A stretch of DNA of 64,000 bases from SAR116 cluster bacterium AG-390-L20 (lineage in GTDB: Bacteria > Pseudomonadota > Alphaproteobacteria > Puniceispirillales > Marisalimonadaceae), in NCBI GenBank assembly GCA_003278095.1, contig QCHB01000005.1, positions 43,977-107,976 on the forward strand, written 5' to 3'. Shown piece by piece: positions 3,385 to 16,187 of the stretch (position 1 is the first letter of the stretch; the number at the start of each line of letters is the position of its first letter). The notes under the pieces are model-generated. The model was not told where the DNA came from, did no database searches, and worked only from the letters and a program-made list of their open reading frames with translations. Both the position numbers and the translations under genes were made by a program.

Positions 3385-3639
3385 ATGATATGGTTTGTTT
3401 ATATGTTAAGATGTAGAGATAATTCAATCTATACTGGCATAACTAATAACTTAGACAAACGAATTGGAGCACATATGTCTGGAAATGGCTCCAAATATGT
3501 TAGAGGAAGATTACCTGTGCAATTGATTTATAAAGAAGATTTTTCAAATAGAAGTAGCGCTAGTAAAAGAGAAATAGAAGTTAAAAAACTAAACAAAAAA
3601 GAAAAAGAATTATTAATAAATTCTGCTAAACAACTTTAA
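3385..3639 (+). CDS. GIY-YIG nuclease superfamily small protein (UPF0213-like)
   Basis: 84 aa; VYMLRC..SIYTGITNNLDKRIGAH and KREIEVKK resemble the GIY-YIG fold; start abuts upstream stop (TAAATG). Confidence 0.75.
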   Translation: MIWFVYMLRCRDNSIYTGITNNLDKRIGAHMSGNGSKYVRGRLPVQLIYKEDFSNRSSASKREIEVKKLNKKEKELLINSAKQL

Positions 3640-4089: not shown

Positions 4090-4320
4090 ATGACAAATAT
4101 AATTGAAACAAAGTTTGGAACCTTAGTTAATACAAGTAAAATTGCTGCAGGTAGCGCGTCTAGCATAAAAAAAACTGGAGCTTTTTATAATTTTTCTATC
4201 AGAGTTAGCCAAGATGATATTCGTGAGTACTCCTTTACAGACTTGGCCAGAGCTGAATATATGAGAAGAATTATGATAGGTCATCTGGAAGAAAAAATTA
4301 AAAAAGAGTCTAAAGGCTAA
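4090..4320 (+). CDS. hypothetical protein
   Basis: ORF track 4075..4320; I prefer the internal ATG at 4090 (MTNIIETK) preceded by a G-rich RBS; no recognisable motif. Confidence 0.4.
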   Translation: MTNIIETKFGTLVNTSKIAAGSASSIKKTGAFYNFSIRVSQDDIREYSFTDLARAEYMRRIMIGHLEEKIKKESKG

Positions 4321-4606
4321 TACATTATATATTGTATAATGCAAATACTTAATTTTATTTAATAACTCATTATAATAAATTATTATTATTAAAGATATTT
4401 TAGTTGATAGATATATGTCAGCTTTTCAAGCTTATACATATTGTTGAATTATGAAACATTCATATAAAATGATTAATTTTTAATAACACAGATAGTTTCT
4501 GCATAAATAAATTACATAAACCCAATTTGTATTGAAAAAAACTTTGAGATACTTCAAGTTTTGTTCAATATAATTTTAACCATGGGGGAAATCATGGAGA
4601 ATAAAT

Positions 4607-5999: not shown

Positions 6000-6194
6000 T
6001 TTATCTCCTATAACTATTTTTAAATATTAAGTAGGAATATACTAATCTAACCAGATATTATCCATAAAGTATTATCCATTTAGTTTATGCATCTAGTAAT
6101 AAAGCAGAGTTATTGTAATCAAAATTATTGGTACATGATTAGTGCTCAACATGTTTATGTAAGTCTATGTAATTCAGAAAGAATGAAGTTATTT

Positions 6195-6980
6195 TTATTT
6201 AAAAATTGCTGAAATGTTTCCAAACAAACTAGAGTTAACCTCTATCAGTTTTTTATCAACTATTGGAATTGGAGGACCATATGCCCCTGTCAAAATAAGA
6301 TCCCCTTTTTTTATTTGATTATTCATCTTAGCTTGTTCAATAACAAACCACTCAACCGCTGATAACATGTCAATAGGCCATATTTTATTTGTCCATTTAT
6401 CTATTATGATTTTATCATAAATCAATTTTAGGTCAGTAATTTCTCCAAATTCTGGTTTGTCTATTCCAAGACCACAAACCACGCCGGCATTTATTGCATT
6501 GTTTGAAATATGTTCTGCACCATAGGGTTTATCACCATAAAATATTAGATTATGTATTTCAATTATTGGGTGAATTGTGTCAATTGAAGCTAATATATAT
6601 TCAAAACTAACTTCTTTAGGATGTAAATCACGATTGAATCTTATACCAAATTCAGCTTCCATTGCTGGATTTGAATAATTTTCTTTATTTAATTTTATTC
6701 CATTTGAATGAAGTTCACTTTCCCATAAACGTCCCCAAGCTGGATAGGAAAAACCGTATTTTTTTTGTGTTTGTTTTGAAATACTACCAATTTTGTAACC
6801 AATTACTTTTTCACCTCTTTTGATTCTGAGATCAGTTAGTATTGATTGAATTTTATAAGCATCTGAGATACTAATCTTGATATTTTTATTTTTAAACAAA
6901 GCACTATGATTTTTCGCATCGTAATCGTTTAAAATTTTCTGGGCATGGCTCTCTAATTTATTTTGAGTTAATTCATTCAT
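6195..6980 (-). CDS. 2-keto-4-pentenoate hydratase / FAH-fold hydratase-decarboxylase family
   Basis: 261 aa; GYKIG motif and overall MhpD/HpcG-like pattern; adjacent to the tautomerase gene. Confidence 0.65.
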   Translation of the reverse strand: MNELTQNKLESHAQKILNDYDAKNHSALFKNKNIKISISDAYKIQSILTDLRIKRGEKVIGYKIGSISKQTQKKYGFSYPAWGRLWESELHSNGIKLNKENYSNPAMEAEFGIRFNRDLHPKEVSFEYILASIDTIHPIIEIHNLIFYGDKPYGAEHISNNAINAGVVCGLGIDKPEFGEITDLKLIYDKIIIDKWTNKIWPIDMLSAVEWFVIEQAKMNNQIKKGDLILTGAYGPPIPIVDKKLIEVNSSLFGNISAIFK

Positions 6981-7247
6981 ATTGTATTTTTATTTAATTA
7001 AATATTGTGCCTAACTCAACATTAAGAGTATTATGAATTTAGTATAGAATAAACGTATATCTCATTAATAAAATAACTAACTTATATGATCAGTTATGTT
7101 ATGATGAGAATTATTTATACCAGAAGAATATATTTTTTAGTTTTCAATAATATAATCCAAAATAGTAATTGCTTTGCTTAAAGCTAATTTAGACATCATT
7201 AAAAAATTTTTAAGGATAAAGTATAGACGTCCAACAAACAAAATATT

Positions 7248-7997
7248 TTATAAATTTTTGATCAATAATGAAAAACCAATAACAATTAAAATCATTAAAA
7301 TAGTTTTTCTAAATATTATGTTAGATAATTTCATCCTAATTTTAGTTCCTAAATACTGTCCTAACAAAGCTGGTGCAGTAATGATCAGACTCACCAACAA
7401 ATCATAAAAGTTACCTAAACCATGAAAAATAAGGGATGAATATAATGGTATAGAAGCTAAGAAATACATTGTTGCTGTAGTTCTTATAAAATTCTCTTTT
7501 GCTAAATTTAATGAGACTAAAAAGGTAATTATAGGCGGTGCGTAGAAGGTAGACACCCCCCCCAGAATACCTGAAAAAAAACCAATAAAGATTGATATTA
7601 TTTTCTCATATTTTGGTTTAAGCCAATTTAGATTTAATCCTAAAAAGTTTAAACCCGTAAAAATAATAATTGTCAACGCAATTATTATTGAAATTGTTTT
7701 CAAATTTAAACTTAATATTAGTTTTCCACCGATAAGTATACCTAAAAAAAGTGTTATAAACATTGGAAAAAACCTATAACTGCTTATTCCTCTTTTGATA
7801 TCCATTTGGATGAAGTTTGTTATAATAACTGGAAAGCATAAAAACATCATTGCTTTAGTAGGTGGCAAAATAAAAGCTATCAATGGAACTGAAAACATAG
7901 ACATTCCAATACCAACCGATCCTTTAACTATTCCTCCAAAAAATACAGAGCACAAAATTACAGAAAAAGTAATAGTTTCAAAATATTCTAAAAACAT
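7248..7997 (-). CDS. TauE/SafE (TSUP) family anion exporter membrane protein
   Basis: 249 aa, about 8 hydrophobic helices, GGIVKGSVGIG and GILGGVS glycine motifs typical of DUF81/TSUP. Confidence 0.75.
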   Translation of the reverse strand: MFLEYFETITFSVILCSVFFGGIVKGSVGIGMSMFSVPLIAFILPPTKAMMFLCFPVIITNFIQMDIKRGISSYRFFPMFITLFLGILIGGKLILSLNLKTISIIIALTIIIFTGLNFLGLNLNWLKPKYEKIISIFIGFFSGILGGVSTFYAPPIITFLVSLNLAKENFIRTTATMYFLASIPLYSSLIFHGLGNFYDLLVSLIITAPALLGQYLGTKIRMKLSNIIFRKTILMILIVIGFSLLIKNL

Positions 7998-8025
7998 ACT
8001 TTTATATTAAGTGGAATGATCACGC

Positions 8026-8037
8026 CTCGTAAAGTGA
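8026..8037. repeat. orphan CCTCGTAAAGTG box (5' box of type-A repeats) at the distal edge of the cassette array
   Basis: cctcgtaaagtg matches the start of A1 (tctcgtaaagtg), A3 (cctcgtaaagta) and A4 (cttcgtgaagtg), but the rest of the repeat is absent. Confidence 0.5.
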
Positions 8038-8073
8038 ATTGAGAAAGACCTTATTTTTATTATTTATTAATTT

Positions 8074-8412
8074 TTAAAAACCAGAGTATTTAACATTTTC
8101 AAAAAGATTAAAATCACTCTGAGTTGACATTCTTCCTTGAGTTTCACCTCCAACTATTGTCATTGTGGCTCCCATTTCTGTGATCTGTTTTTTTAAATCT
8201 GAATATTCACCTGCTTGTTTAAAAGATTTATCCCATTCTTTTTTTGACTTCCAAACAGTTAAAAATTGAAAAGAGATATCTGAAATATCAATAAATAATG
8301 AAAAATTTAAACCATCTTTAAATAAAGAATCTGTATAATTTATACAAAAAAATTTAAAAGAGTCCCTTGAAACCTTGTTTACAAATTTAAAAACATGGGT
8401 TCTCGTATACAT
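8074..8412 (-). CDS. hypothetical small protein, family 2 (paralog of 8752..9075)
   Basis: FLTVWKSKKEWDKSF..ITEMGATMTIVGGET aligns with MFHLWKDKSSLIKTR..IKEMGGIVSKSEGET of the neighbour; possible ABM-like alpha+beta barrel. Confidence 0.5.
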   Translation of the reverse strand: MYTRTHVFKFVNKVSRDSFKFFCINYTDSLFKDGLNFSLFIDISDISFQFLTVWKSKKEWDKSFKQAGEYSDLKKQITEMGATMTIVGGETQGRMSTQSDFNLFENVKYSGF

Positions 8413-8470
8413 ATTTTTTCCTTTTTTCTCATTTTTAATTTTTTAAATATAATTTAATGAAATTAGATTA

Positions 8471-8752
8471 TCAATCTAAACAGTACTTAATTGGTCCCTC
8501 AAATGACCTTATTTTTAAGTTAGTTTTCAATTCATTAATTTCTAGATTATTCATGATTTTTATTCTATCTGTAGATTTCTTATCTTTAAATCTAGCAACA
8601 ACAAACGCTGACATATCATTTACTCTGAAAACTTTTGCAGACTTTTGACCCTATTCAAAATTTTTTGGAAAATGAGTAATTCTTAAATAATCTAAAAAAA
8701 TATTTAATTGAAGTTTAGTTGGAGCTGTTATTTCTACAATTCTAACGTACAT
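8471..8752 (-). pseudogene. small ORF interrupted by an in-frame TAG (8651-8653)
   Basis: My translation: MYVRIVEITAPTKLQLNIFLDYLRITHFPKNFE*GQKSAKVFRVNDMSAFVVARFKDKKSTDRIKIMNNLEINELKTNLKIRSFEGPIKYCLD*. Its ATG overlaps the TGA of the upstream ORF (TGATG at 8750-8754). Confidence 0.45.
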
Positions 8753-9075
8753 CACTTAACCTGTACATTAGCATTATTTATTAGTTTTGACATTTCAACT
8801 ACCGTTTCACCCTCTGATTTACTTACTATTCCTCCCATTTCTTTTATATCATTCCAAAACTTATTGGAAAACTTTGTTCTTGTTTTTATTAAAGATGATT
8901 TATCTTTCCATAAATGAAACATATCTATTTGAGTATCTGATACTTCCGTGAAGCACCTAATTAACAAGCCTCCACTTTCATTAAACAACTCTTCACTCAT
9001 ATTTTTGAGGGACATAACTATAGAATCTTTGGCTAATTTATTTTGTAATTTTACAGTAACTGTTATTCCATACAT
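8752..9075 (-). CDS. hypothetical small protein, family 2
   Basis: 107 aa, paralogous to 8074..8412 (see that entry). Confidence 0.5.
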   Translation of the reverse strand: MYGITVTVKLQNKLAKDSIVMSLKNMSEELFNESGGLLIRCFTEVSDTQIDMFHLWKDKSSLIKTRTKFSNKFWNDIKEMGGIVSKSEGETVVEMSKLINNANVQVK

Positions 9076-9112
9076 ATTTTAAATTCCATAAGCATTTTGA
9101 TACTGACATATT

Positions 9113-9244
9113 TTAATCAAATCGAACATATCTCGTAAAGTGTTAAACATTTTAATGTCTAATATAAAGTCTTTCAGAAAGGCTAATGCAATCGAAGTAA
9201 TAGTTTTAGTTGTTGTCGCTAAGTAAGGCTGTATGAGCCAGGAG
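9113..9244. repeat. type-A structured repeat, copy A1 (most diverged)
   Basis: tctcgtaaagtgttaaacattttaatgtctaatataaagtct...ggctaatgcaatcgaag...aggctgtatgagccagga aligns with A2-A5; abuts the stop of ORF 9245..9583. Confidence 0.7.
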
Positions 9245-9583
9245 TTAGACTCTCAAATCCTGAAGAACAATGTTTCTACTTGCCTCTATAACAGGGTCTG
9301 CGGCTTGAAGTTCTTTCATAATGTTTTTGGTAAAATTTTCTAATTCATTTTGAGATTGTTTAAATGAAGTTGGACTTTCATACTCAAACAAAATAGATAT
9401 TTTAAATGTTCCCTTCATATTCCATATTTGATTAAGACAAAATCTTGTACATCCTTTTTTTTTAAGTTTGTCAAACAATGCTGTACCATTATCTTCCCAA
9501 ATTCTTCTAAAAAGAAGCATTTGCGCTTCTGTCTTGAAAGTAAAAGTATTGTAAGTCATTAAATTTGCTTTTGTATCCAACAT
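9245..9583 (-). CDS. hypothetical small protein, family 1 (WN-x-G...FEY motif), diverged member
   Basis: KKKGCTRFCLNQIWNMKGTFKISILFEYESPTSFKQSQ aligns with the other three members. Confidence 0.55.
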   Translation of the reverse strand: MLDTKANLMTYNTFTFKTEAQMLLFRRIWEDNGTALFDKLKKKGCTRFCLNQIWNMKGTFKISILFEYESPTSFKQSQNELENFTKNIMKELQAADPVIEASRNIVLQDLRV

Positions 9584-9702
9584 AAACTCCTAGTCTGCAA
9601 AAATTTATAATAAATTAAGGTATCAATCAAACCTATCTATGTTAAGTAAAAAGGAACCAAAACTTTAACACTTTGTTTCATCGTTTTGATTAAAGATAAT
9701 AA

Positions 9703-10045
9703 AATTTTATAATTACATTAAGTTAAATTTTAGATTAATGCGATTGAGAAGCAGTTCCATACTCTACTTATGCATCGTGTCCTATCACAATCAAGCTATA
9801 TATTGAGATATGGATACATATGGCATTGTCAATAGGCACCATATGTTTCACACTTTGTTTTACATCTTAATTTAGCGTTCTTAGTATAGAAAAATGGGTC
9901 ACTAAATATGTATAAATATACCTAATTATAATAACACTTCTATGTATCACTTAAGTGTAACACTATAAGTGTAATCCTGCCCCACACGTGTGCCACCCGA
10001 CCCTTGTCGGTATAGTATACATAGGCTTTGCAGCAGATGAAGGTA
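9703..10045. repeat. type-B non-coding module, copy B1 (contains decayed tRNA-Leu 3'-end fragment)
   Basis: 9710-9735 matches 14851-14876 at 25/26. 9862-10040 is roughly 85% identical by eye to 15012-15194. Ends in tatagtatacataggctttgcagcagatgaagg. Confidence 0.75.
9736..9751 (-). repeat. degenerate copy of the tRNA-Leu 3' end
   Basis: taatgcgattgagaag versus tggtgcggctgagaag (12/16), in the same position relative to the conserved flank ttaaattttagat as the exact copy at 14877. Confidence 0.5.
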
Positions 10046-10112
10046 TTTACAATAATTAGACAGTGAAATATTCTACTATTAATCACTTTAACTTTTTAAA
10101 TAGGACACTTTT

Positions 10113-10457
10113 ATGACTTCTTCAAAACTAGTAAATTATACCACAAGAGAATTTATGTCAGACCATGAACTTGAACATTACATAGTTAAACAAAACGAAA
10201 TATTTACACCAAAAGTTGTTGAAGAATTTACGAAAGCTGGAATGTTAAGAAGAGTTTTGACAAAACTTTGGAATAAAGAAGGTGTCCATAGAGTTGGTAT
10301 ATTATTTGAGTATAGAGACGAAAAAGCATATGTTGCATGTCAAAGTCTATTAGAAAAGCATTATATCCCAATGGTAAAAACATTTATTACTAAAGTAATA
10401 GGAAGCCGGGGTATAGTAGTCCATGAATTTAGTTCTGAAGAATTTACGAAGGGATAA
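10113..10457 (+). CDS. hypothetical small protein, family 1 (only plus-strand member)
   Basis: KAGMLRRVLTKLWNKEGVHRVGILFEYRDEKAYVACQ; lies between B1 and A2. Confidence 0.6.
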   Translation: MTSSKLVNYTTREFMSDHELEHYIVKQNEIFTPKVVEEFTKAGMLRRVLTKLWNKEGVHRVGILFEYRDEKAYVACQSLLEKHYIPMVKTFITKVIGSRGIVVHEFSSEEFTKG

Positions 10458-10463
10458 AATAAC

Positions 10464-10580
10464 TAAAGTGTTTACCATTTTAATGACTAATACAGAGTTA
10501 TACAGCAAGGTTAATGTAATCAGATTCAATTAATATCAGCTATAGTTTTAGTGGTTGTGTCAGTCTGAATGAGTCAGGAA
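10464..10580. repeat. type-A structured repeat, copy A2
   Basis: taaagtgtttaccattttaatgactaatacagagtta..cagcaaggttaatgtaatcagattca..cagtctgaatgagtcagga. Arms 10484-10500 and 10561-10576 pair at 12/16. Confidence 0.75.
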
Positions 10581-10594
10581 TTTATAGTCTGATT

Positions 10595-10969
10595 TTATTT
10601 ATTATTTTCATACCACTTATCTAAGTTTATTATTTCATCTTTTGGTTTTAAACTTGACGTAAACCTCTCTACTTCAACAACAAAAAAACTAGCATACTTA
10701 TCTGTTCCCCAACTTTGAACTTGCTTTTCTACATCTTCCTTTGAGTTAGCTAAATAATGAGAACAAAAAAAGGTACTATTGTTTCCAAGCCACGTTTGAG
10801 AGCATGTTGCAAACTCTCCAACTGCATCTTCAGCCCATTTGCCGTGAGTAACACCTTTTGGATACAATTTGTTAAAAGAGGATTTATATTCATCTGACTT
10901 TTTCTCTGACAGAAAGTCATAAATAACAATATAGTTATTCTTTCTATTTTCAGTATTTGTTTTCACCAT
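10595..10969 (-). CDS. hypothetical protein
   Basis: 124-aa ORF between A2 and B2; no motif recognised. Confidence 0.5.
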   Translation of the reverse strand: MVKTNTENRKNNYIVIYDFLSEKKSDEYKSSFNKLYPKGVTHGKWAEDAVGEFATCSQTWLGNNSTFFCSHYLANSKEDVEKQVQSWGTDKYASFFVVEVERFTSSLKPKDEIINLDKWYENNK

Positions 10970-10992
10970 CTACCTATCAATACTTTTGCAAT

Positions 10993-11280
10993 AGCATCAG
11001 TTTATGTGTTCCTAAATCTGTGTCAACAGGCACATAATGGTCTGCCGTTTGGTGTACCCTTAGAAATCTTCTGGTAATGTAAAGAACCTTCAAATTTATA
11101 CACATATAAATATACTCAACTACATACTATCTTCTTCATTAGTCAGTTAATATATTACAATTAATATGTAGTCATTTAGGTGTGCAGTTATATGTATTAT
11201 TTAAGTGACCCTACCCACAGATGGGACATAGGACGGTGTACGTATAGTATACATAGGCTCTGCAACAGATGGAGTGTTAA
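10993..11280. repeat. type-B non-coding module, copy B2 (left end truncated, no tRNA fragment)
   Basis: gcatcagtttatgtgttcctaaatctgtgtcaacaggcacataatggtctgccgtttggtgtaccc and tatagtatacataggctctgcaacagatggagtgttaa match B4; the middle is diverged. Confidence 0.7.
11036..11058. repeat. tandem direct repeat, 12-bp period (aatggtctgcc g tttggtgtacc)
   Basis: Same position within the B module as 14983-15005. Confidence 0.6.
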
Positions 11281-11636
11281 TAATTATAATCTAATAAATT
11301 AAGTGTTCTTGTAGTTAATCTTTTCACAGTGATTTTCTTAAAGAAATTTTCATTCTCTTTAAAATGTTTTTCTATAACTTTTTGTCCCTTAACATAGGCA
11401 TTTTCGTCTTTATATTCAAATAACGTTGACAAAGCAAAACCACCTTCTTTGTTCCATACCTGATTCAATCTAAAGCGCATCAATCCAATTTTTTTCATGC
11501 TTTCATAAAAGTTTGAACCTGTTCTTTCTACATAATTTATAAATAATTCCATTTCGGCTTCACTAGAAAAATCTATTAAAACATGACTAATTAGTTTTGC
11601 TGATGGTATTGAATTTTTATGTTCGTTCATACACAT
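11277..11636 (-). CDS. hypothetical small protein, family 1
   Basis: KKIGLMRFRLNQVWNKEGGFALSTLFEYKDENAYVKGQ; its TAA stop (11277-11279) lies inside the AGTGTTAA box that ends B2. Confidence 0.6.
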   Translation of the reverse strand: MCMNEHKNSIPSAKLISHVLIDFSSEAEMELFINYVERTGSNFYESMKKIGLMRFRLNQVWNKEGGFALSTLFEYKDENAYVKGQKVIEKHFKENENFFKKITVKRLTTRTLNLLDYNY

Positions 11637-11697
11637 AACCTATTTACTAATTTAAAATATTAAAAAATAAAATTATAACTTTGTAGTTACTATATTA

Positions 11698-12000
11698 TTA
11701 TATTCCTTCAACCATAAGTATGTTTGAAGTAGAATTTTCTAATCTTACTTTTTTATAAGGTCTGTATTCTTCACTATCATACCATTTCATAGCTGATTTT
11801 TTGTCAGGAAATTTTACTAATACCATTCTAGTAGGTTTCCATAAATTTGTTTCCAAAGAATCTATCTCTCCACCCCGAATTAAGTATTCACCACCATAGC
11901 TTTCAATCATAGGTTTAACTTTTTCCATATATTTCTGGTATTCTTCTATGTTGTGTATATCCACGTCACCAATCATATAAACTGACATAATCGTCTCCAT
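11698..12000 (-). CDS. DUF1330-like protein
   Basis: SVYMIGDVDIHN..EEYQKYMEKV.P.IESYGGEYLIRGG...MVLVKFPDKKSAMKWYDSEEY matches the DUF1330 pattern as I recall it; the true start may be the ATG at 11985. Confidence 0.65.
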   Translation of the reverse strand: METIMSVYMIGDVDIHNIEEYQKYMEKVKPMIESYGGEYLIRGGEIDSLETNLWKPTRMVLVKFPDKKSAMKWYDSEEYRPYKKVRLENSTSNILMVEGI

Positions 12001-12116
12001 GCTTTCTTTTTCATATTTATATCGCTAATCAAATACCTACAAACAAAATATATAAACTACCAAACAATAAAAAATCAATTATGACAATTTTCATAAAGCT
12101 ATTCATGCTAATAGTT

Positions 12117-12259
12117 TAATCCAAAGAAACACTCCTCGTAAAGTATTAACCAATTTAATGACTAATACAGAGTCATGCAGCAGGGTTAATGTAATCAGAG
12201 TCAAAATGGGTGCATGAGATGTTGTTATAGTGATTGAATGAGTCTGTATGAATCAGGGA
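12117..12259. repeat. type-A structured repeat, copy A3
   Basis: taatccaaagaaacactcctcgtaaagtattaaccaatttaatgactaatacagagtcatgcagcagggttaatgtaatcagagtca...tgagtctgtatgaatcaggga. Arms 12159-12175 and 12239-12255 pair at 14/17. Confidence 0.8.
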
Positions 12260-12357
12260 TGGGTGTGGTAACACTTATATCAAAATTCGTAGAAAGCTAT
12301 TAAATGGAAATCCAACTCTGAGTATTTTATAGGATAGATTACAATTTAAATTTGTAA

Positions 12358-12783
12358 TTATTTGGCGAATACAGTAAGTGGTCCAAGACCTTCAGCTCCA
12401 GCAATTACAGCATACACTATTGTGGGCGTTTTAGCTGTGTTTGTAACAGTGTGAGGTGAATTTGTTGCTTCAACAAACGTATCTCCGGCCTTATAGACTA
12501 CCTTTTTTCCATTAGGACGTTCTGAGGTAACCTCCCCTGACATTATATGCACGATAAGGGGTGCAGGATGAGTATGCTTTGGTAATTTTCCACCCACTGG
12601 AAATATTACCTGAACAATAGTCATTTTTGGAGTACCTTTAGGGTAAGAAATAGCTTCACCTGCACTAGATTTAGAACTTGAATGTAACACTGTTACTTGT
12701 GGTTTTAATTGTTTTGAATTGGCCACATTTGCAAATACTGCTATAGTTAATATAATTATCAATTTTGTAATTAATTTATTCAT
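12358..12783 (-). CDS. secreted cupin-domain protein
   Basis: N-terminal signal-like MNKLITKLIIILTIAVFANVANS; cupin motifs HTHPAPLIVHIMSGEV and GDTFVEATNSPHTVTN. Confidence 0.75.
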   Translation of the reverse strand: MNKLITKLIIILTIAVFANVANSKQLKPQVTVLHSSSKSSAGEAISYPKGTPKMTIVQVIFPVGGKLPKHTHPAPLIVHIMSGEVTSERPNGKKVVYKAGDTFVEATNSPHTVTNTAKTPTIVYAVIAGAEGLGPLTVFAK

Positions 12784-12892
12784 TAGATTTCCCTTTTAAC
12801 TTATTTAAACCAAAAATTTATACTCATTTATAATGATTTGTCTGTAAAGTATTTACATATTTAAAAATATAAGACTGTACAAATAATAAGCA

Positions 12893-12945
12893 TATATGAG
12901 GGTGTAGCTATATATGTATAGTTAGCGTCTGTAGCAGATGGGATT
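12893..12945. repeat. type-B module fragment, copy B3 (3' end only)
   Basis: tatatatgtatagttagcgtctgtagcagatggg aligns with tatatacataggctctgcagcagatgggg of B4. Confidence 0.5.
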
Positions 12946-13006
12946 TTAGAATTGGTATAGTACGTAGATGAATATTATTGTTAGCCCAAGCATAAGTATA
13001 AACTTC

Positions 13007-13360
13007 TTATATACTCCAATCATATTTAAACTCAGAAACCACTATTCCCCTATTATTAAATATTTTGAAAACAAATTTTGCTAAGGTTGGACAATTTTCA
13101 GGTGTGAAAGCAACATTTAAAATATTTTCACATTTTTTAAAAGATGTCTCACTGTCATATTCAAAAACTTGAGTAATTCTATGATGTCCTTTATTCCATA
13201 CTTTAGAAATTACATGACGAATTAAACCATTTTGCTTCAATTGAGAGTAAAGTTTATCTGTCCATATTTCATCAAGAGATTTCAAAAATAAATCTAATTC
13301 ATTTTCAGTTGAAAAATCCATATACAGTGAGTTAAGAAAAGCCGTATCTTTATTTTTCAT
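13007..13360 (-). CDS. hypothetical small protein, family 1
   Basis: KQNGLIRHVISKVWNKGHHRITQVFEYDSETSFKKCE. Confidence 0.6.
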   Translation of the reverse strand: MKNKDTAFLNSLYMDFSTENELDLFLKSLDEIWTDKLYSQLKQNGLIRHVISKVWNKGHHRITQVFEYDSETSFKKCENILNVAFTPENCPTLAKFVFKIFNNRGIVVSEFKYDWSI

Positions 13361-13441: not shown

Positions 13442-13581
13442 TAATCCAAACAAACACCCTTCGTGAAGTGTTAACTATTTTAATGACTCTTACAGAGTCA
13501 TATAGCAGGGTTAATGTAATCAGAGTCATTGATATATGAAATATAGTTGAAGTGGCTTTATGAAACTGAGTGAGTCAGGGA
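13442..13581. repeat. type-A structured repeat, copy A4
   Basis: taatccaaacaaacacccttcgtgaagtgttaactattttaatgactcttacagagtcatatagcagggttaatgtaatcagagtca...actgagtgagtcaggga. Contains a perfect 7-bp palindrome, tgactct tac agagtca, at 13484-13500. Confidence 0.8.
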
Positions 13582-13596
13582 TTAATAAAACTATCT

Positions 13597-14742
13597 CTAA
13601 TTAATCTCTTCTACTATTTTAGAAACAACACCTTTTTTGAATAAGTTTCCATATTTATATTTTTCATCAACTGAAAACATAGTTAAGATTGTGTTTTTAG
13701 TAGTATTAATAACATTAAAAAATCCACCATGACCTGTCATAGTTAATGTTGGTACGCCATTTACTTCGTATACCCAAAACTGATATCCGTATCGTACTCC
13801 ATCTCTTTTTGTCTCAACTGCATTTTCAATACCTTCTTTATAAAATTTACCTAAACACGTATTATTAATCATTTCGTCATGTATAAATTGACCAAAGTTT
13901 GACCAATCTAATACACTCATTGTCAACCTAGCTTGGGCAACTGTAATTCCTTTTTTATCTGAAACCCAATGCATGAATTTATTTTGGCTAAATTTTTTAA
14001 AAGCATTTTCATAGAAAATTTGACTTGCTGGTCTGTTTGTTAAATCAGTAATCATAATTGAAAGTGCGAATGGGTCTGATGAAAAATAAAAATGTTTTGA
14101 GCCTTGTTCTCTGTCATTATCCTTTAAAATTGAAATAGCCTTAAACATACTAGCTTTTCCTTCATATTTTCTCAGCCCCATTGCCATTTGGTTCATCTTT
14201 CTTCTTAGCTTATAATCATTTTGTATTGGCGCCACTCCACTATTCATCTGCAGTGTGTTTCTTATAGTTATTTTAGAGTATGGAGTTTGCTTGAGTGAAG
14301 AAGAATATTTACCTAATTCATCATCTAATGATTCAATTTTACCGATGCAAACAAGACTACCAATTGCCGTAGCCAATGCTGTTTTTGCCATAGACATACC
14401 GTGTAATATCGTATTACTATCAATATTTCTTTTTTTATTAAATCTTGCATAAACTAAATCATTATTTTTTCTTATTAACGCAGCTAAATTGTTTTTATCT
14501 TTAAAAATATTGTCATAATTTTCTTTTTTCAAATTGACACTATCAAGATTTTGTTTTTCCCCATAACTATGAATATTTATTTTAAAAGGACCAAACTTTT
14601 TTGTTTCATGAACATTAAAATAGGGCTTTATTTGCCTTTTCCACATTTTTTTAGGCCCATGGTCAGCGTAAGAAATAAAGAAAAATGAAAAATAAATTGT
14701 TATAGATAAAAATAACTTGAACATAAATAGCCTCAAATACAA
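13597..14742 (-). CDS. serine hydrolase, beta-lactamase/transpeptidase-like family, membrane-anchored or secreted
   Basis: 381 aa; hydrophobic N-terminus; S-x-x-K motif SMAK in GMSMAKTALATAIG. Confidence 0.7.
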   Translation of the reverse strand: MYLRLFMFKLFLSITIYFSFFFISYADHGPKKMWKRQIKPYFNVHETKKFGPFKINIHSYGEKQNLDSVNLKKENYDNIFKDKNNLAALIRKNNDLVYARFNKKRNIDSNTILHGMSMAKTALATAIGSLVCIGKIESLDDELGKYSSSLKQTPYSKITIRNTLQMNSGVAPIQNDYKLRRKMNQMAMGLRKYEGKASMFKAISILKDNDREQGSKHFYFSSDPFALSIMITDLTNRPASQIFYENAFKKFSQNKFMHWVSDKKGITVAQARLTMSVLDWSNFGQFIHDEMINNTCLGKFYKEGIENAVETKRDGVRYGYQFWVYEVNGVPTLTMTGHGGFFNVINTTKNTILTMFSVDEKYKYGNLFKKGVVSKIVEEIN

Positions 14743-14876
14743 TTAATTAATATGTTAATAATAAACATATTAATTAATTTTAAAACAAAAAAATAAGCAC
14801 CAAATTTTTCAATCTATTTCACAGTGTTAATTTAAAAAAATAAAATTTAATAATTACAGTAAGTTAAATTTTAGAT

Positions 14877-14893
14877 TGGTGCGGCTGAGAAGA
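14877..14893 (-). repeat. exact 17-bp duplicate of the tRNA-Leu(GAG) 3' end (candidate att core)
   Basis: tggtgcggctgagaaga is identical to 16101-16117 (3' strand of the T stem, acceptor 3' strand and ACCA). Confidence 0.85.
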
Positions 14894-14982
14894 TTTAAGT
14901 TAATCTAAGATGCACCACTTGAGGTTGTATACAAGCTCTATGCTCAGTTTATGTATTACCGAATCCGTGTCAACAGGCACAT

Positions 14983-15005
14983 TTTGGTCTACCGTTTGGT
15001 CTACC
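14983..15005. repeat. tandem direct repeat TTTGGTCTACC g TTTGGTCTACC
   Basis: Perfect 11-mer twice with a 12-bp period, about 90 bp from the 14877 core copy. Confidence 0.8.
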
Positions 15006-15201
15006 CTAAATGTTACATCTTAATTTAGCGTTCTTAGTATAGAGAACATAGAAATGGATATGTGTAAATATACCTAAACTATAATAACATTTATATGTAT
15101 CATTTAAGTGTAACACTATAAGTGTAATCCTACCCCACAAGTGAGCCACCCCACCCTTGTACGGATATATACATAGGCTCTGCAGCAGATGGGGTATAAA
15201 T

Positions 15202-15316
15202 AGTGTTAACCATTTTAATGTGTCATAGAGGTTCAAGCAGTAGGGTCTATTTAATCAGAGCCAATGGTACATTGGATGTGTTTATAGTAGTTGTTTGAGT
15301 CTATGTGAATTAAAGA
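15202..15316. repeat. type-A structured repeat, copy A5 (fused to B4)
   Basis: agtgttaaccattttaatgtgtcatagaggttcaagcagtagggtctatttaatcagagcca...tgagtctatgtgaatta. The stem cataga/tctatg shows two compensatory changes relative to tacaga/tctgta of A3. Confidence 0.7.
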
Positions 15317-15507
15317 TGGAGAGTTAAAGTTTACTACCACTAACTTTTATTAATTAATTTAATTTGTTTTTCATTCATATTTTTTAACTGATTTGGTAAA
15401 GTTATTTCATCAGTCCATAAAAGCTTAATATTCAAGCCAACATTAACATATTATAATGATACGTAATCTAGGCTTCTTATAAATATTCAACCTATAAATA
15501 TTAAACC

Positions 15508-15864
15508 TTAAGCATTAACCTTCTTTTTAGATTTCCAAATTAAAAAAACTAGAGATAAAACTTGAGCTGCAAGTAAAAACCACACAAGTCCTGCTATTGA
15601 ATTTTCATCTGCATTTTCAGCACTTGCTGCAACCCATAAAAGAGGAGAAAGGAAAAACAAGCTTAAAAAATTGACTCCAATTGCTATATACCCTAAAAGC
15701 GCACTTTTTCCATAAGATAATGCAGCAAGAATTGCAGAAACTACAGTAAGGTAAACACCGATAACTGGAATAAAAATGGATATCCCGGCTAGAACAATAG
15801 ATAATATACCCATTACTTTACCACGAGAACCTTCTTGTGAAACAACTTCATTAGATTCATTCAT
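15508..15864 (-). CDS. hypothetical small membrane protein
   Basis: 118 aa, 3-4 predicted hydrophobic helices, lysine-rich C-terminus; only ORF inside the mini-element. Confidence 0.55.
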   Translation of the reverse strand: MNESNEVVSQEGSRGKVMGILSIVLAGISIFIPVIGVYLTVVSAILAALSYGKSALLGYIAIGVNFLSLFFLSPLLWVAASAENADENSIAGLVWFLLAAQVLSLVFLIWKSKKKVNA

Positions 15865-16012
15865 AATTTTTTCCTTTAGTTCAATTATAAAATTAAATAA
15901 TTAATTTACATAAAAATAAGTCTATTTAAATGTACTTAAAAAATTTAAATAGTCAATTTTTAAAATTAAAAGTAATTTTATAATCAAATATGGAATGTGA
16001 AGGGAACATTTA

Positions 16013-16035
16013 AATGGTCTACTATTTGGTCTACC
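16013..16035. repeat. tandem direct repeat aatggtctact a tttggtctacc
   Basis: Same motif, orientation and 12-bp period as 14983-15005; lies 65 bp from the tRNA 3' end. Confidence 0.75.
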
Positions 16036-16100
16036 CTCCAAGGACACATTACAAAATATGCTTACACATCAACTACTTAGGATGACTGAATCACTTGAAA

Positions 16101-16187
16101 TGGTGCGGCTGAGAAGACTCGAACTTCCACGGGTTTTACCCCACAGCGACCTCAACGCTGCGCGTCTACCAGTTCCGCCACAGCCGC
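16101..16187 (-). tRNA. tRNA-Leu (anticodon GAG), CCA encoded
   Basis: Reverse complement is GCGGCTGTGGCGGAACTGGTAGACGCGCAGCGTTGAGGTCGCTGTGGGGTAAAACCCGTGGAAGTTCGAGTCTTCTCAGCCGCACCA. Features: 7-bp acceptor stem, anticodon loop TTGAGGT, long variable arm. Confidence 0.9.

Follow-up and report, generated by a model that had tools for sequence, protein, structure and literature searches.

Here we report the structure of a repeat-rich island that adjoins a transfer RNA (tRNA) gene, tRNA-Leu(gag), in SAR116 cluster bacterium AG-390-L20, and of the short junction at which its two repeated modules, A and B, meet. The sequence analysed, hereafter the window, is a stretch of 64,000 nucleotides (nt) from contig QCHB01000005.1 (positions 43,977 to 107,976 of the forward strand); it is AT-rich, with a G+C content of ~28%. 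To the left of tRNA-Leu, the 120-nt repeat A is present in five copies that start at ~9139, 10467, 12142, 13467 and 15202, all on the plus strand, and a weak sixth A-like copy lies at 6067-6178. Allowing up to three mismatches, AGTGTTAACCATTTTAATG matches the window five times, always on the plus strand, against 0.08 matches expected by chance, and the core of B gives three matches where none is expected. Four copies of B alternate with the A repeats. An original prediction made from the letters of this stretch had set one empty B-A junction beside three B-to-A intervals filled with open reading frames (ORFs), and this layout is borne out: 15174-15214 reads TAGGCTCTGCAGCAGATGGGGT-ATAAATAG-TGTTAACCATT, so that the end of B4 (15174-15195) runs through a linker (15196-15203) straight into the A5 box (from 15204), while B1 is followed by ORF 10113-10457 (plus strand) and A2, B2 by ORFs 11277-11636 and 11698-12000 (both minus strand) and A3, and B3 by ORF 13007-13360 (minus strand) and A4. 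All A-to-B intervals of the window carry cargo too, with every gene on the minus strand. The modules of the island to the left of the empty junction, with the cargo that separates them, are as follows.

9137-9248, plus strand: A1, A module.
9245-9583, minus strand: cargo of the A1-to-B1 interval, a fourth DUF6974 gene.
9648-10043, plus strand: B1, an older attR-like arm with a degenerate tRNA-Leu end at 9739-9760 and terminus TAGGCTTTGCAGCAGATGAAGG.
10113-10457, plus strand: DUF6974 cassette between B1 and A2.
10465-10583, plus strand: A2, A module.
10595-10969, minus strand: A-to-B cargo ORF.
10970-11275, plus strand: B2, a truncated arm that lacks the tRNA copy, terminus TAGGCTCTGCAACAGATGGAGT.
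12140-12263, plus strand: A3, A module.
12358-12783, minus strand: A-to-B cargo, a cupin gene between the A3 end and B3.
12900-12944, plus strand: B3, a 45-nt short form of the B end.
13465-13585, plus strand: A4, A module.
13597-14742, minus strand: A-to-B cargo, a beta-lactamase-like gene.

The empty junction itself lies next to the tRNA gene, within a 1.2-kb sequence (14877-16117) that is an integrase-less remnant of a family of tyrosine-integrase elements integrating at the 3' ends of tRNA genes. The remnant and its flanks comprise the following features.

14789-14876, no strand assigned: Ba, 88 nt, the native flank that follows tRNA-Leu in unoccupied genomes and the B' flank of the right attachment site (attR).
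14877-14893, minus strand: O, the core of attR, in which the 3' end of tRNA-Leu(gag) is copied exactly over 17 nt.
14894-15195, plus strand: B4, P arm of the attachment site.
15196-15203, plus strand: linker ATAAATAG, 8 nt, AT-rich and variable, the polymorphic junction.
15204-15319, plus strand: A5, box TGTTAACCATT and inverted arms of 10-nt units AGTCATACAG around a variable centre (nhmmer E 1.7e-28).
15508-15864, minus strand: predicted membrane-protein gene, 118 amino acids (aa), the sole intact gene of the remnant.
15981-16021, plus strand: DUF6974 gene fragment, inverted and fused to the integrase remnant, 90% complementary to 9394-9434.
16002-16025, minus strand: integrase remnant, with the start ATG changed to ATA and seven further codons (VDHLNVP), from alignment with the integrase start of the related locus L017.
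16026-16100, minus strand: P' arm, the stretch upstream of the integrase that separates its start from the tRNA.
16101-16187, minus strand: tRNA-Leu(gag), the integration target, left attachment site (attL).

The 17 nucleotides at 14877-14893 match 16101-16117 at all 17 positions and repeat the tRNA 3' end, in direct orientation, at the opposite border of the element. In a metagenome contig that lacks the insertion (L041; related loci are given such handles throughout), a Ba homologue directly follows the 3' end of tRNA-Leu and represents the empty target site. Because the 17-nt tRNA-Leu end is present and Ba holds this position in L041, Ba-O-B4 is identified as attR. Read from the tRNA, the order is tRNA-Leu (attL core), P' with eight integrase codons, the membrane-protein gene, A5, B4, the 17-nt copy and the native flank, and it is this order that makes B the P arm of the attachment site. 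Homologous B arms adjoin tRNA-end copies in L017, L002 and L027. At the opposite end of the remnant, the 120 nt between ORF 15508-15864 and the tRNA recur in relatives, where they lead into an integrase start; the P' sequence also follows tRNA-Gly(tcc), tRNA-Gly(gcc) and tRNA-Phe in L017-L021 and L002, and these same loci have an intact integrase gene beside the tRNA at the position of the eight-codon remnant. No integrase match was found within the window. The 41-nt inverted DUF6974 piece on the integrase remnant is the scar of an old rearrangement.

Within B4 we recognise the box TGGTCTACCGTTTGGTCTACCCT (14985-15007), direct repeats TAAGTGTAA (15105-15130) and the terminal 22-mer TAGGCTCTGCAGCAGATGGGGT. 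The box is the same sequence as the region around the integrase start codon: the motif AGGGTAGACCAAAYGGTAGACCA overlaps this codon and recurs within B at 14985-15007, and its position in both arms suggests that it may mark arm-type integrase sites. B also contains a conserved promoter-like site on the minus strand (TTGACA, 16 nt, TAAACT; 14946-14973 and 10999-11026), found in L002, L017 and L027 as well, which faces outwards to the tRNA-end copy and the minus-strand gene beyond.

attR is present twice in the window, and both copies have a native flank of their own, one the Ba at 14789-14876 and the other a diverged Ba copy (76% identical) at 9648-9735; their coexistence is best explained by the import of a neighbouring island segment through homologous recombination. 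The island at 9.1-14.8 kb is an older mosaic of the same A and B modules as the remnant element.

Relatives were collected by searching one genome per species for the A box, which gave 16 loci, and metagenomes for the B-end 22-mer, which gave 105 stretches. The 16 loci come almost entirely from single-cell genomes labelled SAR116 cluster (AAA536-G10 group) and contain many A and B copies. In relatives, the B arm belongs to elements with a tyrosine integrase of 381-389 aa that combines DUF6538 (PF20172) and Phage_integrase (PF00589) and occurs at four tRNA-specific sites: integrated at tRNA-Gly(tcc), tRNA-Gly(gcc) and tRNA-Phe, and at tRNA-Leu as an attP junction. This integrase is widespread in marine metagenomes, with 5738 homologues at E up to 1e-20, the top 120 of which are 80-92% identical; its phage relatives are distant (32%). 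No primase or helicase was seen among its neighbours in the relatives.

The whole integrated form is preserved in L017: its attL comprises tRNA-Gly, P' and the integrase, the cargo that follows consists of two DUF6974 genes and one for a cupin, and its attR comprises A, B and a 19-nt tRNA-Gly end, beyond which the chromosome resumes. L027 carries a tRNA-Leu-type attP junction (B, CTCTTCTCAGCCGCACCA, P', integrase) on an 11-kb contig (1-11005) whose ends are exact inverted copies of that junction, an arrangement that fits a circle of ~11.2 kb, or possibly a tandem array. Directly after the integrase stop codon comes a further attP, inverted and complete with P', tRNA-end copy and B (L017:11146-11532, L019:11146-11184, L021:11156-11540 and L002:4595-4975; also in L027, where it is 100% identical to the first). 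In L017 and L027 the cargo is bounded by full attP copies in inverted orientation; inverted recombinase sites therefore split the integrase arc from the cargo arc, and the cargo arc could, by analogy, flip at them.

In the integrase-bearing L017, L027 and L002, B runs straight into A, and so the "empty" junction is the element's distal end in its canonical form. The identities of B, O and P' and this canonical contiguity are established. The finding changes how the junction is understood, as the original prediction had taken B plus A for one contiguous site that cargo could split, or from which it had been deleted between B4 and A5. Deletion is unlikely, given that contiguity is the state in these three integrase-bearing loci, and the single site resolves into two things: a ~300-nt integrase attachment arm bearing a copy of the tRNA-Leu 3' end (B) and an independent module (A). 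The two modules also occur independently of each other: there are A arrays without B, 64 of 133 B ends with cargo but no A before the contig ends, and 11 cases of the reverse order, in which A is directly followed by a 45-nt short B.

What the prediction proposed, a comparison with related islands for cargo at the junction, does reveal presence/absence and replacement of cargo between B and A, both in genomes and in metagenome contigs. Across the relatives, the conserved B end ...GCAGCAGATGGGGT and the A box TGTTAACCATT stand 7-9 variable bases apart (linkers GTAAATAG, GAATATAT, GTTGAGAG, CATATAGC and others), and in filled copies the cargo starts there. Of the 121 distinct B ends that have sufficient flank, 33 (27%) arrive at TGTTAACC in no more than 14 nt; the remaining 88 continue into unrelated sequence that falls into 47 clusters. 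When all 133 B-end occurrences with room downstream are counted, 36 show cargo followed by A after 421-2694 nt, and the 64 mentioned above show cargo with no A before the contig ends. Homology ends after GATGGGGT, with conservation falling at the next position (+1), also in 37 B ends that had not been fished with the pattern; it climbs again at the boundary between TAAAG and TGTTAACC, also in 49 A copies not fished with the A pattern. The 7-9 AT-rich linker bases go with the downstream sequence and not with B, and the linkers at B-A junctions are a family of their own, distinct from the linkers that precede cargo. The gap between the B end and the A box is a recombination hot spot for cassettes of 0.4-2.7 kb in the population, and the cassettes at this junction reassort freely relative to the sequence left of the B end and right of A.

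These break positions also refine the predicted cargo edge, which had been placed at the AGTGTTAA box. The left edge of A, where TAAAG meets TGTTAACC, does fall inside the box; the break on the B side falls after GATGGGGT, 7-9 nt before it. The copy of AGTGTTAA at the end of B2 is present as described (11273-11280), with the stop codon of ORF 11277-11636 (tta, 11277-11279) inside it; as a feature shared by B and A it fails, since the same cargo is preceded by GATACTGAAATATAATT in L001 and the box is thus not conserved.

Three types of junction recur among the relatives: B end to cargo, cargo to A box, and A end to short B. Arrays of short B, ORF and A occur, three in a row with co-oriented ORFs in L009, and arrays made of units of A plus a gene, with no B, are found in L098, L114 and L041. 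In L041 an array of A plus minus-strand gene lies beyond Ba (4253-4400), and the same is seen in the window at 6067-9735. Mini-units made up of a B end, an A box, ~55 nt and a further B end and box are present at L035:3000-3100, L087:150-260 and L039:3175-3290; these are ~90-nt cassettes that contain no gene at all.

One breakpoint lies inside a module. The left part of B1 (9728-9953) and the right part of B2 (11062-11275) align at 91% and 86%, respectively, to one contiguous B in L111 and L032, so that a breakpoint must lie within B, and homologous or unequal recombination is implied. Between the two parts are 1.1 kb containing the B1 end, a DUF6974 gene, A2, ORF 10595-10969 and the B2 start, a segment that looks like the product of unequal recombination inside B. 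The sharp and reproducible break positions, the polymorphism and reassortment of cassettes and at least one breakpoint inside a module are established; candidate mechanisms for the recombination behind them are homologous exchange between repeated modules and an integron-like site-specific reaction.

The cassettes at the B-A gap are often a DUF6974 gene. As predicted, the small proteins of the three filled intervals are of one family, Pfam DUF6974 (E 1e-43, 4e-10 and 6e-16), with one encoded on the other strand. The cassette at 10113-10457 is found with the same boundaries in L011, L012, L013, L015, L055, L060, L095, L097 and L102, its left edge reading GATGGGGT/GTTTACAATAATTAGACAG and its right edge AACTAAAG/TGTTAACC (slashes mark the break), and a single cassette is found behind at least four B variants and ahead of differing neighbours. 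Four clear DUF6974 paralogues, mutually 23-33% identical, lie within 5.3 kb (8074-13360); the small proteins at 8074-8412 and 8752-9075 have no significant DUF6974 match, are more distant and may be related. Relatives have at least two DUF6974 genes beside the integrase. We considered DUF6974 as a recombination protein and treat it instead as cargo; its solved relatives, 2op5 and 2od6, are annotated only as hypothetical proteins. Both are, we assume, small alpha+beta proteins.

Cassette polymorphism is not confined to the B-A gap. A cupin cassette lies between the A end and a short B in the window (12264-12900), L010, L015 and L017 (12925-13571) and is missing in L003 (277-301); the cassette has a direct repeat of 6-7 nt, GGGTGT, on either side, and GTGT stands at the cargo side of the B end, the A start and the A end. 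Comparison of L009 with L001 shows two extra cassettes in L009, bounded by 45-nt short-B repeats, and a 1659-nt block that starts at the B end in L055 is absent from L107.

Module A opens with the near-invariant box TGTTAACCATT, preceded by a semi-conserved TAAAG, and the same box also leads into several unrelated sequences. Its body consists of two inverted arms built from one to three copies of the 10-nt unit AGTCATACAG around a variable centre, with the conserved box outside the stem that the arms would form. The arms could pair over 22 positions, where 82% of cells are paired, the same as in shuffles; compensatory changes showed no excess in alignments of 31 or 72 distinct copies, and RNAalifold returned no consensus fold for A. 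Matches of the window in Rfam 15 were tRNAs alone, at the gathering score and at E up to 1. We read the A arms as repeats that act as double-stranded, specific sequence, probably as protein-binding sites, and not as a folded RNA or an attC-type hairpin.

Several other identities for A and its neighbourhood were tried and rejected. A folded hairpin of RNA or single-stranded DNA does not agree with 82% pairing that lacks covariation and yields no RNAalifold prediction, and a small gene does not agree with indels of 10 and 20 nt that break every reading frame. As ends of a miniature inverted-repeat transposable element or an insertion sequence (IS), A and the cassettes fail in that the inverted arms are internal to A and no constant duplication flanks them; IS200/IS605- or IS91-type ends do not fit the anatomy, and no transposase is present in the region. 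Scanning the B end and A for a sigma-70 promoter or an intrinsic terminator gave results no better than shuffles. A 28-nt Xer/dif site, whose XerC and XerD arms enclose a 6-nt spacer, has only GTTAA in common with these sequences, in the XerD arm (7 of 11 positions), with no XerC-like arm, as judged by eye and without a model search. A 25-nt extension, TAATCCAAACAAACACCCCTCGTAAA, precedes A1, A3 and A4 (9114-9138, 12117-12141 and 13442-13466), not A2 or A5, and is found exactly where the gene on the left side of A is encoded by the minus strand; when reverse-complemented it includes GAGGGGTGTTT, which closely resembles the B-end core GATGGGGTGTTT.

Taken together, we favour, as the rather more probable account of the island, a combination of integrase placement at the tRNA, module swapping by homology and selection on the modules, the last of these being held less firmly than the rest. 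The integrase would set elements down at the tRNA. B ends and A modules, 45-120 nt long and often more than 85% identical, would then serve as portable homology for recombination, through which cassettes could be gained, exchanged, duplicated and lost, both among co-occurring strains and between tandem copies, and selection may keep these cis-acting modules whole. Several points weigh against this account. No recombination event was seen directly. More than 40 different cargos begin within ~2 nt of GATGGGGT, which is sharper than random illegitimate events, and the GGGTGT repeats at the cupin cassette, together with GTGT at the B end, A start and A end, look more like the core of a site-specific reaction. 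Arrays of A plus gene lie outside anything that tRNA copies bound (L041; window 6.0-9.6 kb), and tRNA integration alone therefore does not build the arrays. Finally, B-end conservation in the metagenome set is partly a matter of construction, as those loci were fished with the B-end 22-mer, and the B ends from loci not fished with it number only 37.

The main alternative, although we think it unlikely, is an integron-like platform. The B end would correspond to attI beside a divergent integrase, A plus short B to an attC of ~190 nt between cassettes, and circular cassettes would enter and leave at a GTGT/GTT core through a tyrosine recombinase, either the DUF6538 integrase or another. The order in L027, where the integrase on the reverse strand is followed by the B end, A and cargo, is as such a platform would require, and so are the three successive units of short B, ORF and A with co-oriented ORFs in L009 and the two whole cassettes present in L009 and absent in L001 between short-B repeats. 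The direct GGGTGT around the cupin cassette, the sharpness of the edges and the occurrence of GTGT/GGGTGT at all three junction types point the same way; the junctions read G/TTTACA, G/TTAGGG and G/TTAACC, and the box TGTTAACCATT is followed by varied unrelated sequences, as a core site would be. However, the integrase has no integron-integrase match and only weak Xer-like (XerA/XerC/XerD) NCBIfam matches (E 7e-7; 29 bits, where the cut-off is 220). What is conserved in the A arms is sequence and not structure, with pairing at the level of shuffles and no covariation, and the ends lack an inverse-core/core pair. Cargo lies on both strands, with 27 ORFs co-oriented with B and 21 opposite, genes lie between A and short B and would thus be inside the supposed attC, and breakpoints are found inside B as well.

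Less likely again, in our view, is that A and B are expression modules and that the edges reflect selection, the cargo arriving by any mechanism and being retained for its expression. The B end would act as a promoter, its 22-mer followed by a -10-like linker (for example TATAAT, TACAAT or TAAATA), and A as an insulator or as a terminator in both directions. In most copies the linker after GATGGGGT is indeed -10-like (GTTTATAAT, GTTTACAAT, TTTTATAGT), yet no -35-like hexamer stands at 16-18 nt, and a generic promoter scan does no better than shuffles and places no site at the B end. Gene orientation is similarly divided. In the window, the gene to the right of each A converges on A, with a stop codon ~15 nt from the end of A2 and A4, genes diverge from B in five of seven cases, and the B-end-like GAGGGGTGTTT is found on the opposite strand immediately to the left of A1, A3 and A4, ahead of leftward genes; of 36 cargo intervals, 22 contain only ORFs co-oriented with the B end, but 12 contain only ORFs opposed to it. 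A lacks a GC-rich stem with a T run, and the proposal leaves the entry of cargo unexplained, being compatible with either recombination model. Secondary loss of a cassette that once lay between B4 and A5 is very improbable: cassette loss by short-B recombination is seen elsewhere (L001 compared with L009), but B and A are contiguous in the integrase-bearing L017, L002 and L027 and at about a quarter of B ends, and the B-A linkers stand apart from those that precede cargo.

At the left edge of the variable region, ORF 3385-3639 encodes a small GIY-YIG-like protein (84 aa; motif read by eye) and follows an ABC-transporter ATPase gene.

Searches of IMG/VR gave no match for A or B, and the B-A stretch had no match among GenBank phages. 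The literature searched contains no account of the A/B modules, of DUF6538 integrase elements or of an inverted second attP; within that literature the A/B module architecture is apparently undescribed, and islands that adjoin tRNA genes and combine partial tRNA repeats with stacked remnants are already known. A bolder interpretation, which we offer tentatively and ourselves regard as doubtful, is that low-GC SAR116-like alphaproteobacteria harbour an undescribed cassette-capture system: a tRNA-specific platform with its integrase between two inverted attP sites. If that were true, the arm end GCAGCAGATGGGGT would be attI-like and A/short-B attC-like, single-gene cassettes would be inserted and excised site-specifically, and the whole would amount, in function, to an integron whose recombinase is not IntI and whose repeats are double-stranded sequence.

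The usual mobile elements are said to be missing from streamlined ocean bacteria, yet the flexible genes of these bacteria cluster near tRNA genes. The present island can be followed nucleotide by nucleotide, from a widespread integrase and its attachment arms to a junction of a few bases that holds dozens of small cassettes across cells, which provides a testable handle on how accessory genes are swapped in streamlined ocean genomes. On a practical level, the B-end 22-mer and the A box are motifs with which further cassettes can be fished out of metagenomes.

Among known systems, the nearest likeness is to islands that target tRNA genes with tyrosine integrases, such as the tycheposons of Prochlorococcus (bioRxiv 10.1101/2020.12.28.424599), and to the tRNA-linked islands with partial tRNA repeats of SAR11 (PMC11796062). 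Like them, the present element integrates at a tRNA 3' end and has full and partial tRNA copies at its ends, and its degenerate remnants are stacked by the tRNA of a streamlined marine bacterium with small metabolic genes and genes of unknown function as cargo. The likeness drawn here is one of anatomy; no replication or packaging genes were seen in this element, 120-nt A and 45-400-nt B modules alternate here with sharp cassette edges, and an inverted complete second attP follows right after the integrase gene. With integrons it has in common small, mostly single-gene cassettes between copies of a repeated 100-200-nt element with an inverted repeat, a short conserved box at the cassette edge, a tyrosine recombinase gene that diverges from the array, and the possibility of an element without cargo. 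Unlike integrons, the recombinase is not IntI, the repeat is conserved in sequence instead of structure and has no R''/R' pair, genes occur on both strands and inside the repeat unit, and the platform itself is mobile and tRNA-specific. The yeast 2-micron plasmid carries inverted FRT repeats on which FLP acts, and the putative circle of L027, with two 100% identical inverted recombinase sites, resembles it in geometry only, the element here being bacterial and tRNA-integrating and its inversion putative. In the swapping of variable genes between conserved flanks within a recombining population, the island is also similar to the module shuffling of mosaic phages and to replacement genomic islands maintained by homologous recombination (PMC4033161), except that the flanks here are short non-coding modules repeated many times in one island.

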